64,000 nucleotides of DNA from a virus (Duplodnaviria; Heunggongvirae; Uroviricota; Caudoviricetes): positions 14,478 to 78,477 of IMG/VR virus record IMGVR_UViG_3300031555_004162. One strand, 5' to 3'. The translations under genes were made by a program, and so were the position numbers. The notes beneath the pieces are model-generated. The model saw nothing but the letters and a program-made list of their open reading frames with translations. It ran no database searches and was not told the origin of the DNA. This document shows, piece by piece, positions 12,165 through 63,489 of the stretch; the first letter of the stretch is position 1, and each line of letters begins with the position of its first letter.

Positions 12165-12527
12165 TTATTCAATTATTAAATTATACACAATACTTGCTAA
12201 AACTTTAGAATCAAATTTATTTTGCACTAATTCTACACAATATTCTTCATTAAGATTTTTATTTTTGTAATTTAAATCTTTACTTACTTTAACTGCTTCA
12301 TGTAAATCTGTATAAAACTTACAGCCGATACAATAACTAATACATTTTAATGTATCTTTAGCTACTAAACAAATAACATATACATTAGTTTCTCCACTCA
12401 TAGCATTTATAAATGTAATTAAATTATTATAATTATTTTCTAATTCTTTAAATGTTAAATTAGATGTGTGATTAATATATTGATTGTGTAAATCTTCTCT
12501 AATTTTTATTTTGTTCACAATACACAC
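12165..12527 (-). CDS. hypothetical protein
   Basis: 120-aa ORF. Confidence 0.45.
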   Translation of the reverse strand: MCIVNKIKIREDLHNQYINHTSNLTFKELENNYNNLITFINAMSGETNVYVICLVAKDTLKCISYCIGCKFYTDLHEAVKVSKDLNYKNKNLNEEYCVELVQNKFDSKVLASIVYNLIIE

Positions 12528-14750: not shown

Positions 14751-15314
14751 CTATAATAAATAATTTAAAGACTTAATTTGTAATTTACAAATAGCTAAAT
14801 CTACATGTTTATTTGTTAATCCTGAATAAAGTCCATTAGAAGTATTTATAAATTCAAATGAATCTACATATGGATGCATGTCTTTCACATCATCATCTAA
14901 AATTACAAAACTTCGAACGATTGTTCTATTTTTATGTAACCACGATTTAATTTCTTTGCCTCTTGCACCTGATTTTAAAGCAGGTGTAATGCCTATTACT
15001 TCAATATTATATTTATTAAGTAAATCAGTAAGTCGTCTTTGGTCTTCATATTGTTCTTCATATGGAAGGTTCCACCAACCATATCTCCAACTACTAGATA
15101 TAACTATCTTAGCATTAGTAGCTTTTACAATTTTAGCTAATCGTTTTACTTTACTCTCATGAATGCCAAAAGGCTTTGTAATACGTTTGTACCAGAGCTC
15201 TAATGGTTTATACTTTATTCTCTTTACAATATTCCAGCCAAGGAGATTCCATTTATTATAACCATTTAATACTCCGTCTATATCTAAAAATATAATGTTA
15301 AATTTTTCTTTCAT
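14751..15314 (-). CDS. HAD-superfamily phosphatase
   Basis: Motif I FLDIDGVL, motif II SSS, a conserved Lys, and motif IV LDDD. Confidence 0.55.
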   Translation of the reverse strand: MKEKFNIIFLDIDGVLNGYNKWNLLGWNIVKRIKYKPLELWYKRITKPFGIHESKVKRLAKIVKATNAKIVISSSWRYGWWNLPYEEQYEDQRRLTDLLNKYNIEVIGITPALKSGARGKEIKSWLHKNRTIVRSFVILDDDVKDMHPYVDSFEFINTSNGLYSGLTNKHVDLAICKLQIKSLNYLL

Positions 15315-29191: not shown

Positions 29192-29240
29192 AATTGCATC
29201 TCCTTTAATGAATTATTTATAATAGTTATTTACAGTTATA

Positions 29241-29269
29241 ATTATAACATAAATTTTTATAAATGTAAA
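29241..29269 (-). promoter_or_regulatory. sigma-A-like promoter (TTTACA-N17-TGTTATAAT) driving 28892..29191 and downstream genes
   Basis: On the minus strand, TTTACA at 29264-29269 and TATAAT at 29241-29246 with a 17-nt spacer; a second TGTTATAAT box lies about 60 nt upstream. Confidence 0.45.
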
Positions 29270-29350
29270 TAGATTTTTTATAATTAAATAAAAAATTGTT
29301 ATAATTATATAAAAATACAAATTATATTTATATAATTATAACAATAATAT

Positions 29351-31456: not shown

Positions 31457-31491
31457 ATTTAGTATCTCCTTTACAACTATAATCTATTACA

Positions 31492-31520
31492 ATTATAACA
31501 CATTCTTTTATAATTGTAAA
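31492..31520 (-). promoter_or_regulatory. sigma-A-like promoter module, copy 1
   Basis: On the minus strand, TTTACA at 31515-31520, a 17-nt spacer, and TGTTATAAT with the hexamer at 31492-31497. Flanked by TTACAATTATAA / TTATAATTGTAA repeats from 31487 to 31548. Confidence 0.5.
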
Positions 31521-31601
31521 CCGTTTTTTTATAATTGTAATTAAACTGTAATATTATTTATCTATTAGCTTTTCAATATTTTTATTATTTGACATAATTA
31601 C

Positions 31602-32855
31602 TCACTCCGATGACTTAAAATTATATACAGGCTTAATAAGCTTTATAATCTCTACTGTATCTTCAATATTATTTACAATATCATTAATATTCTTATATGC
31701 TTGAGGAGATTCATCGAGAGTACCTTCATTAATACATGTAGAATAAATACCTGTCATAGATTCTGCAAAATCAGAAAGACTAATAGTTTCTTTAGCTTTA
31801 CCTCTACTCATTAATCTACCAGCACCATGAGGAGCTGAATTATTGTAATCCTCGTTTCCTTTACCTTTACAAATAAGAACTCCATCTCTCATATTAATAG
31901 GAATAACTAACATTTGTCCTTCATAAGCAGCGACCGCACCTTTTCTAATTATGTTATCATCTCCAATATAATTATGAATCGTATCAAACCATTCGGTCTT
32001 AATATTATATTTCCCTTTTTGTTTAATTCTTAACTTTCCACTAGTAGATAATTGAACTTGACAATCATTGAAATAATTCTTTATAAGTTCTTCAGCGATT
32101 GTAAATCTATTCAGTGCAGCGTATTTCTGACAAATTCTCATATCATGTAAATATTTATCTTTATCTTCACCAATAAGATAAAGTAAATTTTTAGGAATCT
32201 TATCTAACTTTGACTTATAATTATTTATGGCTTCTTGAATATCAGATTCCCTTCCAGATGCTTTCATTTCTGCTATTAAGGAATTTATATTATTCTTATC
32301 TTCTTCCTTTCCAGCTTTATTTTGATAATACTTACATACGTCTAATCCTAAATGTCTAGAACCAGTATGAATCATAAGATATTTGTTTCCTTCAAAATCT
32401 TCATCAATTTCACAAAAATGATTCCCCGAACCAAGCGAGCCGATAGCTCTTAATACTTTATCATATTGATGTTTTACCACATCTTTATAACAATACATAT
32501 TTTCAAGTTCGTCAAATTTCTTTTTCTGTTTTGAATTAACTTCAAATCCGAAAGCAACATTTTCACGAAGTATTTTATCAAATCTCTTATAATCTATATC
32601 AACATTTCCTAATGGAATTGTTAGTACACCACAACCAATATCGACTCCAACTAAATTAGGAACTACTTTATCTCCTAAATTAGCTGTAAATCCTATAACA
32701 CATCCTGCTCCAGCGTGACAATCAGGTTGAATTCTTATTTTACAACCTTCAACAAAAGGCTGATTTAATAATTGTATTATCTGACATATACACTCATCTT
32801 CTATAACATCTGTAAATACTTTAGCAGTACCATATTTTCCTTTAAGTTCTAACAT
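31602..32855 (-). CDS. rtcB: RNA-splicing ligase RtcB
   Basis: Motifs GVDIGCGV, CHAGAGC, GSGNHFCEIDED and APHGAGR. Start trimmed to MLELKGKYGTAKVF behind GGAGGAATAAA. Confidence 0.8.
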   Translation of the reverse strand: MLELKGKYGTAKVFTDVIEDECICQIIQLLNQPFVEGCKIRIQPDCHAGAGCVIGFTANLGDKVVPNLVGVDIGCGVLTIPLGNVDIDYKRFDKILRENVAFGFEVNSKQKKKFDELENMYCYKDVVKHQYDKVLRAIGSLGSGNHFCEIDEDFEGNKYLMIHTGSRHLGLDVCKYYQNKAGKEEDKNNINSLIAEMKASGRESDIQEAINNYKSKLDKIPKNLLYLIGEDKDKYLHDMRICQKYAALNRFTIAEELIKNYFNDCQVQLSTSGKLRIKQKGKYNIKTEWFDTIHNYIGDDNIIRKGAVAAYEGQMLVIPINMRDGVLICKGKGNEDYNNSAPHGAGRLMSRGKAKETISLSDFAESMTGIYSTCINEGTLDESPQAYKNINDIVNNIEDTVEIIKLIKPVYNFKSSE

Positions 32856-32856
32856 T

Positions 32857-33099
32857 TTATTCCTCCACTTTTGTAGGTTTATAAAGAGTAGCATCTTCAA
32901 GTTCTTCTAAATCGTAAATAATGCTATTAAGTTTATCTATTACAAGTTCATTAACTTTAAATCCATTTTTATCAATAATACGTTTATCATAACTTATATG
33001 ATGAATAGCTTCATCTATTCGGCTATATGCTTCTTTTATTAACCCTTTATATTTTTTATTTTCATTTTCATCTCTTGGAGTTATTTCATAAGCTTTCAT
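32857..33099 (-). CDS. hypothetical protein
   Basis: Start trimmed to MKAYEITP, which has GAGAGGA upstream. Confidence 0.4.
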   Translation of the reverse strand: MKAYEITPRDENENKKYKGLIKEAYSRIDEAIHHISYDKRIIDKNGFKVNELVIDKLNSIIYDLEELEDATLYKPTKVEE

Positions 33100-54788: not shown

Positions 54789-54864
54789 ATTTTTTACTCC
54801 TCCATTAAACTTTATATATAATATAATTGTTTTTAAACGCATATATTATTTAAAAACAAAAAAT

Positions 54865-54897
54865 AAACCTCATTTTATATGAGGTTTATTTTTTTGG
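54865..54897 (-). terminator. rho-independent terminator closing the tRNA/ncRNA transcription unit
   Basis: aaacctcat-tttta-atgaggttt hairpin followed by a T-run on the minus strand. Confidence 0.5.
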
Positions 54898-55133
54898 ATA
54901 AATTGTAAGTGGATAACAGTTAGAGTCTTCAAGGTTTTAAGCCTTGAGCTATTGAGCATTAGCCGTATTTTTAACAAAGACTCATGTATAATGAATATTA
55001 TGTGAAAGAATAAGTATAGCAAAGTAAAAACCATAACTTATTTTAATACAAAAAATGGTTGTATGTTAAAACCACACAATGTTTATTTAGAAAGGAATGC
55101 AAAATAATGTATTTAAATCACATAATATTCATT

Positions 55134-55260
55134 TGGTCGGAATTAAGAGATTCGAACTCTTCTTAATAAATTAATTGTCAAATACAAAATTTTTAAAGGG
55201 GAAGTTTCATTTAGTATATTTTAATTTATTAAGTGTATAACCACTTTATACCTAATTCCG
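55134..55260 (-). ncRNA. aberrant tRNA-like RNA (127 nt). The acceptor, D and T arms are intact. In place of an anticodon arm there is a 13-bp stem with a ~46-nt loop
   Basis: 5' CGGAATT pairs perfectly with AATTCCG before A-CCA. D-arm is GTAT-AAAGTGGTT-ATAC, T-arm AAGAG-TTCGAAT-CTCTT. The central stem is CTTAATAAATTAA paired with TTAATTTATTAAG. Confidence 0.35.
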
Positions 55261-55427: not shown

Positions 55428-55516
55428 TGGTGCAAGAGAAGGGATTCGAACCCTCAATTCCTCACGGACGACGGATTTTAAGTCCGTTGCATATACCAAA
55501 ATTCTGCCACTCTTGC
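55428..55516 (-). tRNA. tRNA-Leu (anticodon UAA), type II with long variable arm
   Basis: Acceptor GCAAGAG/CTCTTGC, anticodon loop CTTAAAA, T-loop GTTCGAATC, 3' ACCA encoded. Confidence 0.85.
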
Positions 55517-55689
55517 ATGTAAATCATAAGAATCACCCACTAATTATTAAATAATAACCACTACATTTATATTTAATAATTGCCCACTATCTTACATTAA
55601 ATCTCTAAAGATTCTACCCGTATGCTTTATTAATTAAAAAAGTTGAACAGAAAAAATGAAACAAAGCTATTCATATTACTATGAATATT

Positions 55690-55763
55690 TGGCTGGGGTA
55701 AATGGAATCGAACCAATACTCTAAGAATCAAAATCTTATGTACTACCGTTATACTATACCCCA
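55690..55763 (-). tRNA. tRNA-Gln (anticodon UUG)
   Basis: Acceptor TGGGGTA/TACCCCA, U8, D-arm GTAT/GTAC, anticodon stem TAAGA/TCTTA with loop TTTTGAT, T-loop TTCGATT, 3' GCCA; 74 nt. Confidence 0.85.
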
Positions 55764-55776
55764 ATATATTAAATAT

Positions 55777-55897
55777 TAAAGGTTGAAAATATATTAAATA
55801 ATTAAGAAAAGAGGATTTACCAGGAACTCAATTCTGGTAAAAAGGTAAATGTTATACTTTCGGAAAATTATTCGAAATGAATATTTTCAACCTTTAA
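55777..55897 (-). ncRNA. inverted-repeat-bounded structured element (possible sRNA)
   Basis: Perfect 16-bp arms taaaggttgaaaatat / atattttcaaccttta enclose about 88 nt that contain an internal taccag/ctggta hairpin; no ORF. Confidence 0.3.
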
Positions 55898-55992
55898 TAA
55901 TTTAAACTAAGTTTAATTTATTCCATCTTATATTTATTATAATAGTTTAACTCTAAAGTTATTATTTATTTTTATGATTTTTTTACGATTTT

Positions 55993-62187: not shown

Positions 62188-63489
62188 TTAAAAATCAATA
62201 TTTCTATCTTTAAGTGATTTTTTTATTAAATATTTTCTATTAGATAATTGTTTAGGTGTTATATTTAATGTTCCACATATAGTATCAACATCATACGTAT
62301 TACAATCGTTTAGAAATTGTTTTAATCCTTCTATGTCATCATATTTAATAGTTGGCTGCCAGTTCTTTGGTCTTTTACCTTTTTTCTTATTTTTATCAGA
62401 GACTAATAGTTTATCATTATTCATTTCATTTTTAGTGTCTACCTCTGGTTTATTTTTTTCGTTATCTATTAAATCTTTATAATTAATACCTTTTCTTTTT
62501 AAAAATGATTGTATTGCACTTTTTTTATCATAAAGTTTTTGAATATTTTCTAAGTTGTATTTTTTCATACAAGATGCTTTACTCATACTATAATAATCTT
62601 TTATAAATTGTGTTGAAAATTCAATTGTATATCTTACCGTGTTTGCTTTTCTATTATCTTTTTTCTCAATATCTTCTTCTTTGATTGCTTCATTTGAAGA
62701 TTTAATTGATTGTTCAAATATATTTTTCGCAGGAGTTAATGTATTTCCAATAGATTTGTATAAATATATTAAAGAATTTAAAATATCATCTAATTTTTTA
62801 GAATTAGCAACATATAAATCTTTTACTATTTTTAAATCCTCATGAAATGAAACGGTTGACTTATTTGTTTCATCTATCATTGATTTTAAGTTGGTTATAT
62901 TATCATTTGTGGTTATAAACTTATTTTGTATGTCTGTAAAAGAATTAATATAATTAACAGTGTCTCTACTATTCACATTGTTAACGTGTTCTTCATATTT
63001 AGTAAATTTATCTTCAATATATTTATCAAACTTAGCAGTTTTTTGTTTGATAATTAAATTTAAAGTAGATTCCAGTTTATTTAAAAAATCAAGAGAAGAT
63101 AATTCCCGTTCTGATATATTTAAATCAAATTCTACAGCAAGGGCTATATCTATTTTTTTCATAACTAATTCAGATAATCTACCTATATATTCACCTAAAT
63201 CATGTTTATTAATACACCTACATTGTTCTAATAAAATTACTTGCGGTCTACCTTCAAATTCATAATAAACTTGATATGGTCCTACTGAAGATTTAGGTCT
63301 GGTGGTTATAGGAGCTATAGTTACTACATCACCTTTTTTATTTCCTATATCATTTGATATAATAACTACTGGTCTTTTTTTACCTTCAATTCTATTAGGT
63401 TGTATATCTCCTAAATCATAATAATAAACATTTCCTCTACTAAATACGTCCAACATTAATCTTTCTCCTTTGTATAACAATTTATCCAT
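62188..63489 (-). CDS. 433-aa protein with an N-terminal MazF/PemK-like domain fused to an uncharacterised C-terminal region
   Basis: Residues ~15-125 (GNVYYYDLGDIQPNRIEGKKRPVVIISNDIGNKKGDVVTIAPITTRPKSS..PYQV......RPQVILLEQCRCINKHDL...IGRLSELVMKKI) align with the Kid/PemK and MazF toxin core. Confidence 0.55.
   Translation of the reverse strand: MDKLLYKGERLMLDVFSRGNVYYYDLGDIQPNRIEGKKRPVVIISNDIGNKKGDVVTIAPITTRPKSSVGPYQVYYEFEGRPQVILLEQCRCINKHDLGEYIGRLSELVMKKIDIALAVEFDLNISERELSSLDFLNKLESTLNLIIKQKTAKFDKYIEDKFTKYEEHVNNVNSRDTVNYINSFTDIQNKFITTNDNITNLKSMIDETNKSTVSFHEDLKIVKDLYVANSKKLDDILNSLIYLYKSIGNTLTPAKNIFEQSIKSSNEAIKEEDIEKKDNRKANTVRYTIEFSTQFIKDYYSMSKASCMKKYNLENIQKLYDKKSAIQSFLKRKGINYKDLIDNEKNKPEVDTKNEMNNDKLLVSDKNKKKGKRPKNWQPTIKYDDIEGLKQFLNDCNTYDVDTICGTLNITPKQLSNRKYLIKKSLKDRNIDF

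Follow-up and report, generated by a model that had tools for sequence, protein, structure and literature searches.

The non-tRNA RNAs of phage tRNA clusters have been little studied, and two of them, RNAC (species 1 RNA) and RNAD of bacteriophage T4, have been known for about fifty years. Their genes follow those of the tRNAs in the T4 cluster, whose order is Gln-Leu-Gly-Pro-Ser-Thr-Ile-(segB)-Arg-rnaD-rnaC. The function of RNAC and RNAD remains unknown (PMC3014915, PMC9697503). We describe here a tRNA-like element of 127 nt in a 64,000-nt stretch of a tailed phage genome (positions 14,478 to 78,477 of IMG/VR virus record IMGVR_UViG_3300031555_004162; this whole stretch is called the window below). 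In the element, a tRNA frame with an encoded CCA holds a long stem-loop where the anticodon arm would stand. With about even confidence, we take it to be a tRNA-derived, non-decoding small RNA that would be excised and stabilised by the tRNA machinery, akin to T4 RNAC.

The likeness to T4 lies in both place and design. In both phages the locus stands at the distal end of a tRNA cluster that starts with Gln-Leu, on the same strand as the tRNAs. RNAC, like the element, combines a canonical T arm (CCGGG-UUCGAAU-CCCGG in RNAC) with an acceptor-like helix around long hairpins, has no anticodon function, and is not called by the Rfam tRNA model RF00005. The two share no sequence homology: a covariance model built from the element, R1, scores rnaC at 23.5 bits (E = 0.27), which is the level of ordinary tRNAs. 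The frame of the element is also much cleaner, with a perfect 7-bp acceptor, a D arm with GG, an encoded CCA and a single 13-bp stem-loop, whereas the acceptor of RNAC is imperfect and its long hairpins number two. The T4 RNAs have been documented to be stable and processed, properties that are predicted for the window element.

Other non-decoding RNAs of tRNA shape offer looser parallels. In plant mitochondrial t-elements, MALAT1 mascRNA and the TMERs of murine gammaherpesvirus 68, RNase P and RNase Z read the acceptor/T-arm half, and some RNAs of this type gain a CCA without being aminoacylated. They are eukaryotic or organellar and usually keep a short anticodon-like arm, and none of them is known to have a 13-bp stem with a 46-nt loop. 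YrlA, a bacterial Y RNA, is a tRNA mimic, a partner of Ro/Rsr and linked to the rtcB operon (PMC7824862). It resembles the element in having a long helix in place of the anticodon stem and in its context of RNA repair, since the window phage has RtcB, but YrlA ends in the long helix and its acceptor-like stem is closed by a loop, whereas the element ends in an acceptor stem with CCA. With tmRNA the element shares the acceptor stem, the T arm, the CCA and a large non-tRNA insert.

The anatomy proposed by an earlier, sequence-only reading was borne out when the minus strand was read from 55260 to 55134. The acceptor stem CGGAATT/AATTCCG pairs at 7/7 positions and leads into A73 and an encoded CCA, the D arm with GG and the canonical T arm are both in place, and a repeat search returned the same arms of the perfect 13-bp stem, 46 nt apart, that had been described as replacing the anticodon arm. 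The proposed lack of a variable loop and of a 7-nt anticodon loop also holds: the T stem follows the long stem with no nucleotide in between. All 29 base pairs of the acceptor, D, long and T stems are Watson-Crick, and the minimum free energy (MFE) structure computed by RNAfold is identical to the one drawn (−23.1 kcal/mol, z = −2.4). Neither the sequence nor the fold revealed a stem with a 7-nt loop inside the 13-bp/46-nt insert. Positions 8–9 read AG. An encoded CCA is also found in both neighbouring tRNAs and in most tRNAs of closer relatives. The coding potential of the element is limited to open reading frames (ORFs) of ≤35 aa on the plus strand; a mini-ORF in the loop, AUG-AAA-CUU-CCC-CUU-UAA, has neither a ribosome-binding site nor a resume-codon context and was treated as chance.

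The frame is not a random occurrence. A scanner that required a T arm, a 7/7 acceptor, a D arm with GG and CCA had the element as its sole match in the window and no match in any of 200 dinucleotide shuffles. Perfect hairpins of at least 13 bp with a loop of ≤60 nt are ~18 times commoner in the window than in shuffled sequence (11 against 0.62 per shuffle), and most of those in the window are terminator-like. When a 5-bp/7-nt anticodon arm and a 5-nt variable loop were grafted into the frame of the element, ARAGORN called a tRNA at default settings; it made no call for the native element, nor for a graft of the anticodon arm without the variable loop. The element occurs in two independent assemblies and is not an assembly artefact, because an independent ENA contig, L016, carries it with three differences. 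The coordinates of the element, its neighbours and comparable genes are collected in the table.

Table. Features of the tRNA-like element, its surroundings in the window and related genes at homologous loci (L numbers are contigs or loci of related phages; other coordinates are those of the window)
Feature	Location	Strand	Basis or remark
Whole tRNA-like element, 127 nt, with encoded CCA at its end	55134..55260	-	Sequence reading, MFE fold, frame scanner; R1 self-match 159.6 bits
Acceptor stem, 5' strand CGGAATT (C1-G72 start, tRNA-Pro-like)	55254..55260	-	7/7 Watson-Crick with 55138-55144
D arm GTAT-AAAGTGGTT-ATAC, G18 G19 in loop, followed by A26	55235..55251	-	Sequence reading, frame scanner
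Long stem, 5' strand CTTAATAAATTAA, 13 nt	55221..55233	-	Repeat search: arms 100% complementary, 46 nt apart
AU-rich loop, 46 nt, with CUUCCCC run	55175..55220	-	Weak internal hairpin predicted by fold
Long stem, 3' strand TTAATTTATTAAG, directly adjoined by T stem (0 nt variable loop)	55162..55174	-	Sequence reading, repeat search
T arm AAGAG-TTCGAAT-CTCTT, with G53-C61, T54, C56 and A58	55145..55161	-	Sequence reading, frame scanner
Acceptor 3' strand AATTCCG (55138-55144), then A73 and CCA (55134-55137)	55134..55144	-	Sequence reading
tRNA-Gln(TTG), first gene of the cluster	55690..55763	-	ARAGORN; Rfam 63 bits
tRNA-Leu(TAA), 168 nt upstream of the element	55428..55516	-	ARAGORN; Rfam 57.1 bits
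Intrinsic terminator-like hairpin with T-run, the only terminator detected downstream of the cluster	54858..54894	-	Terminator scan
Structured domain: 16-bp perfect stem around 112 nt, starting at the first base after CCA	54990..55133 (arms 54990-55005 / 55118-55133)	-	Repeat search
19-bp stem enclosing 88 nt, just upstream of tRNA-Gln; interior variable in L016	55774-55792 / 55881-55899		AT-rich; repeat search
12-bp stem upstream of tRNA-Leu	55542-55553 / 55570-55581		AT-rich; repeat search
RtcB (RNA repair)	31602-32900		
HAD_SAK_2 'Swiss army knife' repair domain protein	14751-15314		
PemK/MazF-like fusion protein, 433 aa, adjoining Mre11/Rad50-like genes	62188-63489		
'Type A' anticodon-less tRNA-like RNAs	L050:14980-15081, L069:11949-12049, L074:14554-14659		tRNA clusters of distant IMG/VR relatives
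Long tRNA genes, 112-135 nt	L051:6693-6818, L050:15367-15485, L107:15021-15140, L045:16049-16163, L074:15133-15267, L060:15680-15805, L074:~14858-14978, L069:~12334-12450		
Second tRNA-frame family, 112-115 nt, acceptor GGGAGTG/TGCTCCC	L050:15249-15361, L052:14821-14935, L069:12199-12311, L087:14687-14798, L094:15436-15550, L101:5149-5263		

The element is not a tRNA, an intron-containing tRNA or a tmRNA. Compared with the tRNA cloverleaf, it has the acceptor, discriminator and CCA, a D arm with G18 G19 and a T arm with TTCRANY and G53-C61; the 5-bp/7-nt anticodon arm with U33, a variable loop of at least 4 nt and U8 are missing. RF00005 gave no match even at E ≤ 10 or at its gathering threshold (29 bits for this family), and the default, intron, relaxed (-ps80/-ps90) and mitochondrial modes of ARAGORN were all negative for the native element, with only a spurious, low-scoring 'tRNA-Leu' on the opposite strand (~55081-55172) at -ps80. 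A tmRNA is excluded by a G3-C70 pair instead of G3:U70, by a length of 127 nt, which is far too small, by the lack of pseudoknots and of a tag frame with a resume codon, and by a negative ARAGORN tmRNA search. Identity with YrlA or another bacterial Y RNA was rejected as well: there is no Rfam match, the topology is reversed, and no TROVE domain was found among the ORFs tested in the window.

The origin of the frame can be narrowed down further. C1-G72 together with A73 is a hallmark of bacterial tRNA-Pro, and in the tRNA sets retrieved from relatives the genes that start with C are tRNA-Pro only. The top non-self match of model R1 is the tRNA-Pro(TGG) of a relative, L013, at 29.1 bits. Given the C1 start and this best match, the frame most likely derives from a tRNA-Pro gene whose anticodon and variable loops were replaced; a close parent was not found among the tRNAs of the relatives.

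To place the element among related phages, we used as a marker the 172-aa protein encoded upstream, which has 115 homologs, and examined ~40 loci at 60-88% identity and 76 IMG/VR loci at 30-40%. The gene downstream of the element has a single homolog, which leads to L016. Over 1.46 Mb of related loci, R1 matched only the window and L016. Searches of a phage database with megablast and blastn matched only true tRNAs.

The segment between the marker and an 865-aa gene is hypervariable, with changing tRNA sets that usually start with Gln; in different relatives it holds UvrB, RlaP with a CCA-adding enzyme, RtcB, Endonuclease-VII-like ORFs or a phage tmRNA. The sequence-only reading had suggested a comparison of this locus across relatives. 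This revealed ordinary, variable tRNAs at the same place; no orthologous intact copy and no target-site duplication came to light. Two of its proposals, a decayed tRNA with an insertion and a decoy or regulatory RNA, both survive, one near-identical homolog being too little to separate them. Its example of a bait for anticodon nucleases is weak because the RNA has no anticodon loop; it could instead serve as a decoy for factors recognising the acceptor end or the elbow.

Within the element, L016 differs from the window by G9->T, which is unpaired, by C25->T, which turns G10:C25 into G10:U25, and by one T fewer in the T-run of the loop; none of these breaks a helix. The support that this lends to a conserved structure is weak, because three structure-neutral changes out of three would be expected under neutrality with a chance of ~0.3, by a rough estimate. 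The rate of change is intermediate: 2 substitutions and 1 gap fall within the 127 nt of the element, the block from tRNA-Gln to tRNA-Leu has 0 changes in 336 nt, and the two variable non-coding flanks have 14 substitutions with 10 gap columns in 248 and 15 with 15 in 243.

RNase P, the enzymes of 3'-end maturation and CCA repair, and T-loop enzymes recognise the acceptor/T-arm minihelix, G18G19, the T loop and the RCCA end of a tRNA, all of which the element retains, and most aminoacyl-tRNA synthetases also need features that are missing from the element. On the reading that we favour, the minus strand would be transcribed together with tRNA-Gln and tRNA-Leu or just after them, the host tRNA maturation machinery would take over, with RNase P cutting at C1, and the 3' end would be trimmed back to the encoded CCA. 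Maturation should work, because the minihelix, the elbow nucleotides of the D loop and T loop and the RCCA end are all intact. The product would be a stable RNA of ~127 nt, unable to decode since a 13-bp AU helix and a 46-nt loop replace its anticodon arm and variable loop. Its role would come about through factors that read the top half and mistake the RNA for tRNA. It might be a stable, self-processing scaffold that presents the hairpin module as its payload, or a competitor or decoy for proteins that bind the acceptor end or the elbow. Transcription, processing, stability and a role in trans are what we infer from the frame and its setting, and the evidence for function is modest.

Several lines of evidence led us to favour a non-decoding small RNA. 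The frame is complete, with every pair intact and no equivalent in the shuffles, and ARAGORN accepts it as a tRNA after the graft. The CCA is encoded as in the sibling tRNAs, and the element lies on their strand, upstream of the only terminator detected. The L016 changes break no helix, and divergence is lower than in the non-coding flanks. There is a precedent in T4 RNAC, and three distant relatives carry conserved anticodon-less tRNA-like genes. Finally, the phage encodes RNA-repair functions that act on tRNA (RtcB and the HAD_SAK_2 domain protein).

Other observations weigh against a functional RNA of this kind. Position 8 is A instead of U, and because the variable loop is missing, neither a canonical tRNA core nor a true L-shape could form unless the long stem frayed at its base (its first few A-U pairs). 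The element is known from only two near-identical contigs, the window and L016, and was not found in relatives at 75-88% marker identity. IMG/VR was scanned for three parts of the element (3' half, D arm and loop segment), and JGI metagenomes and GTDB genomes for a 19-mer from the T arm and acceptor; all matches were due to chance. The element has diverged more than the block from tRNA-Gln to tRNA-Leu. Searches of the window found no target, partner protein or conserved loop motif, and no Ro/TROVE gene was present among the ORFs tested. An antisense target for the loop was likewise not found in the window beyond AT-rich chance matches.

The surroundings of the element are rich in structure. 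The tRNA-Gln(TTG) and tRNA-Leu(TAA) genes are the only tRNAs that ARAGORN and Rfam call in the 64 kb. A terminator shared with them had been placed at 54865-54897; a terminator-like hairpin is indeed present downstream, at a slightly different position (see the table). The related claim that the three genes form one transcription unit agrees with their common strand and their position upstream of this terminator, but promoter-like sites are no commoner than in shuffled sequence, and an AT-rich hairpin followed by a T-rich stretch stands just behind tRNA-Gln. Given the promoter result, a shared transcription unit is a possibility.

Between the element and the terminator lie 239 nt of non-coding sequence (55133-54895) with a fold z of −4.3. 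The 16-bp stem in this stretch has two changes in its 3' arm in L016, both of which leave wobble pairs (G-U/U-G), and no Rfam match was obtained for the region 54895-55133. In the interior of the same stretch, L016 shows a 9-nt indel and ~14 substitutions. Because the adjoining region is so strongly structured, the element may be the 5' module of a larger structured transcript or a processing signal for it. The 19-bp and 12-bp stems upstream of the two tRNAs may be processing stems of the RNase III type or regulatory hairpins.

Among the alternatives, a young tRNA pseudogene deserves the most attention, although we consider it less probable than a non-decoding small RNA. Here a former tRNA, probably tRNA-Pro, would have lost its anticodon and variable loops to an AT-rich palindromic insertion or replacement and would now be functionless, perhaps still being transcribed and processed because its frame is as yet undecayed. 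Such an origin fits the restriction to one lineage (the window and L016), a hypervariable locus in which tRNA genes come and go among relatives, and an ordinary tRNA-Pro as the best non-self match of R1. It also fits an insert of genome-typical AT composition without a conserved motif, an element that changes faster than the neighbouring true tRNAs and their spacers, and A8 with an absent variable loop, which is hard to square with a working tRNA core. Decay, however, does not account for 29 pairs that are all still Watson-Crick or for a 13-bp helix, which is not a product of decay, and the three L016 differences all spare pairing, weak as that argument is. The insert lacks a target-site duplication, and neither the stem nor the loop core searched for recurs in the window; dead DNA is usually deleted fast from phage genomes, and two separate events would be required, the replacement of one loop and the clean loss of the other. 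It is unlikely, in our view, that the tRNA-like fold is only a signal for RNase P and 3'-end formation that sets the ends of its neighbours, notably the ~240-nt structured RNA after the CCA, in the manner of plant mitochondrial t-elements or mascRNA and with the long stems acting as RNase III sites. The features retained are exactly those that RNase P needs, a 16-bp stem begins from the base after the CCA in a stretch of marked folding potential and tolerates only wobble-compatible changes in L016, and other long perfect stems stand upstream of tRNA-Gln and tRNA-Leu. For that purpose, however, a plain tRNA or a bare minihelix would suffice, so the 13-bp stem and 46-nt loop would be unexplained, and the downstream RNA has no Rfam match.

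The two explanations that keep a working tRNA or invoke mobile DNA fare worse. An intron-containing or unusually processed tRNA, from which the hairpin would be cut out and the ends joined, for instance by phage RtcB, to yield a decoding molecule, is close to refuted. The presence of RtcB speaks for it, as do tRNA genes of distant relatives with insertions of ~45-65 nt that still reach 45-46 bits in Rfam. In the element, however, the insert contains no anticodon stem-loop, the variable loop is missing, and the perfect 13-bp duplex shows no bulge-helix-bulge at its junctions. ARAGORN failed in intron mode and called none of 2,970 single internal deletions (20-79 nt), a test in which the long tRNA genes of relatives, as a positive control, gave hundreds of calls; a group I intron would not fit into an insert of 72 nt, and at E ≤ 10 Rfam matched neither an intron nor a tRNA. 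The suggestion of a tRNA needing unusual processing is therefore effectively excluded. We regard as very improbable that the structure belongs to the DNA level, as a small transposon, bounded by terminal inverted repeats, that entered a tRNA gene, or as an attachment site that copies the end of a host tRNA. Perfect 13-bp inverted repeats do surround a 46-bp segment, and tRNA genes are often targets of integration. The flanks of the repeats (ACA / AAG), however, do not show the duplication that insertion of a miniature inverted-repeat or insertion-sequence element would lead one to expect. An exact search found no second copy of the stem 13-mer in the window, the 35-nt loop core has none there at ≤3 mismatches, and a 21-nt loop segment has no copy in IMG/VR. 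Both halves of the acceptor stem are present. The T-arm/acceptor 19-mer TTCGAATCTCTTAATTCCG has three GTDB and four JGI metagenome matches, none of them within a tRNA, in a GTDB set of 185,579 species representatives.

A more specific version of the non-decoding RNA, which we hold improbable, is a counter-defence decoy. A CCA-ended, anticodon-less tRNA mimic might soak up immune effectors or toxins that read the acceptor end, the T arm or the elbow, such as acceptor-stem nucleases and toxins of the nucleotidyltransferase type that modify the CCA end; alternatively, it might occupy a host sensor of tRNA damage. The pool of real tRNAs would thereby be protected, alongside the RtcB-based repair of the phage, and translation would come to no harm, since the RNA is unable to take part in decoding. 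On this view the same trick would have been invented independently in T4, as RNAC, and in relatives, as the 'type A' RNAs.

As related phages show, the tRNA clusters of this group repeatedly contain tRNA scaffolds to which arms have been added or in which arms have been substituted. The RNAs that we call 'type A' are conserved in three phages, each located 2-3 nt after the preceding tRNA. They consist of an 8-bp acceptor with a compensatory change from G-C to A-U, a 7-bp hairpin in the position of the D arm, a long AU stem (CAGCAAUUUU/AAAAUGUUG) with a variable loop in the position of the anticodon arm, and a T arm. These RNAs are not homologous to the element, since their model, R2, does not match the window and R1 does not match them. 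They also differ from it by the lack of an encoded CCA, a 6-nt linker before the T arm, another hairpin in the D position and the longer acceptor.

A further set, the long tRNA genes, carries insertions of ~45-65 nt that either separate position 26 from a complete anticodon arm or lie in the variable region. These genes are missed by ARAGORN, and the four in the Rfam match list score 45-46 bits. Many of their inserts have in common a covarying 7-bp hairpin followed by (A/G)(C/T)ACAGCA, and the 'type A' RNAs carry the same hairpin. This combination may represent an extra arm, or else an RNA module of intron-like or mobile nature; to our knowledge, no equivalent has been described. A link between this module and the window element was rejected, as the two have nothing similar besides a common CTTAA after position 26. 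The second family of tRNA frames listed in the table has a covarying stem and a loop with a conserved CCATCA; neither ARAGORN nor Rfam calls its members as tRNAs in the loci scanned.

Closer relatives contain single oddities of their own: a 'tRNA-Phe(AAA)' with A8 and an all-AT anticodon arm (L006:5293-5366), and a 90-nt tRNA-Asn(GTT) with a class-II-like extra arm (L020:11859-11948). The relatives L017-L023 carry ORFs with a zinc finger and an Endonuclease VII domain inside their tRNA clusters (L017:11680-12396 and homologs in L018-L023). These resemble homing endonucleases and parallel T4 segB, which fits the mosaic gene content of the locus. Relatives at ~75% marker identity have a phage tmRNA (L017:16792-17213; the same region in L018-L023) that adjoins tRNA-Met upstream of the gene for an 871-aa protein and encodes the tag ANRFNVPAQMAA, or ANKFNVPAQMAA in L020; ARAGORN found no tmRNA in the homologous interval of the window phage. 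The phage group as a whole has an RNA-repair toolkit: besides the RtcB, HAD_SAK_2 and PemK/MazF-like genes of the window, RlaP with a CCA-adding enzyme, or RtcB, is encoded within the hypervariable tRNA region of relatives (L010:5998-8470; L004:8385 to end).

The window, whose contig stems from JGI metagenome 3300032167, belongs to a large phage genome, has a G+C content of ~24%, and carries all of its larger ORFs on the minus strand. Its gene content includes T4-style functions (an SbcC/gp46-like protein, dCMP deaminase, dUTPase and a TET-associated glycosyltransferase) along with ThyX, RecA and a C5 cytosine methylase. The nearest relatives of its RtcB belong to metagenome-derived viruses from gut or faecal samples and to Bacillus and Clostridioides phages. 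The related phages themselves are contigs of 177-258 kb from gut metagenomes, and a single small contig among them was binned with the Bacillota genus Candidatus Onthovivens. At 29237-29345 and 31486-31541, upstream of the RtcB region, the intergenic sequence of the window contains a cluster of long perfect inverted repeats with units of the type TATAATTATAACA / ATTACAATTATAA, which may be regulatory or origin-like.

The element is a new architectural variant among the poorly understood tRNA-like RNAs of phage tRNA clusters, which are now regarded as part of an arms race with bacterial defences that target tRNA. It is an unusually clean natural case of a 'top-half-only' tRNA, in which the parts for processing and end recognition are intact and those for decoding are gone. 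Should it be no more than a fresh pseudogene, it captures the death of a tRNA gene in a fast-changing phage locus. If it is expressed, it would offer a simple way to test how a phage benefits from a tRNA mimic that does not decode, be it a decoy, a scaffold or a processing signal, and would suggest that RNAs of this type, overlooked by tRNA finders and Rfam, have arisen repeatedly within the tRNA clusters of phages.

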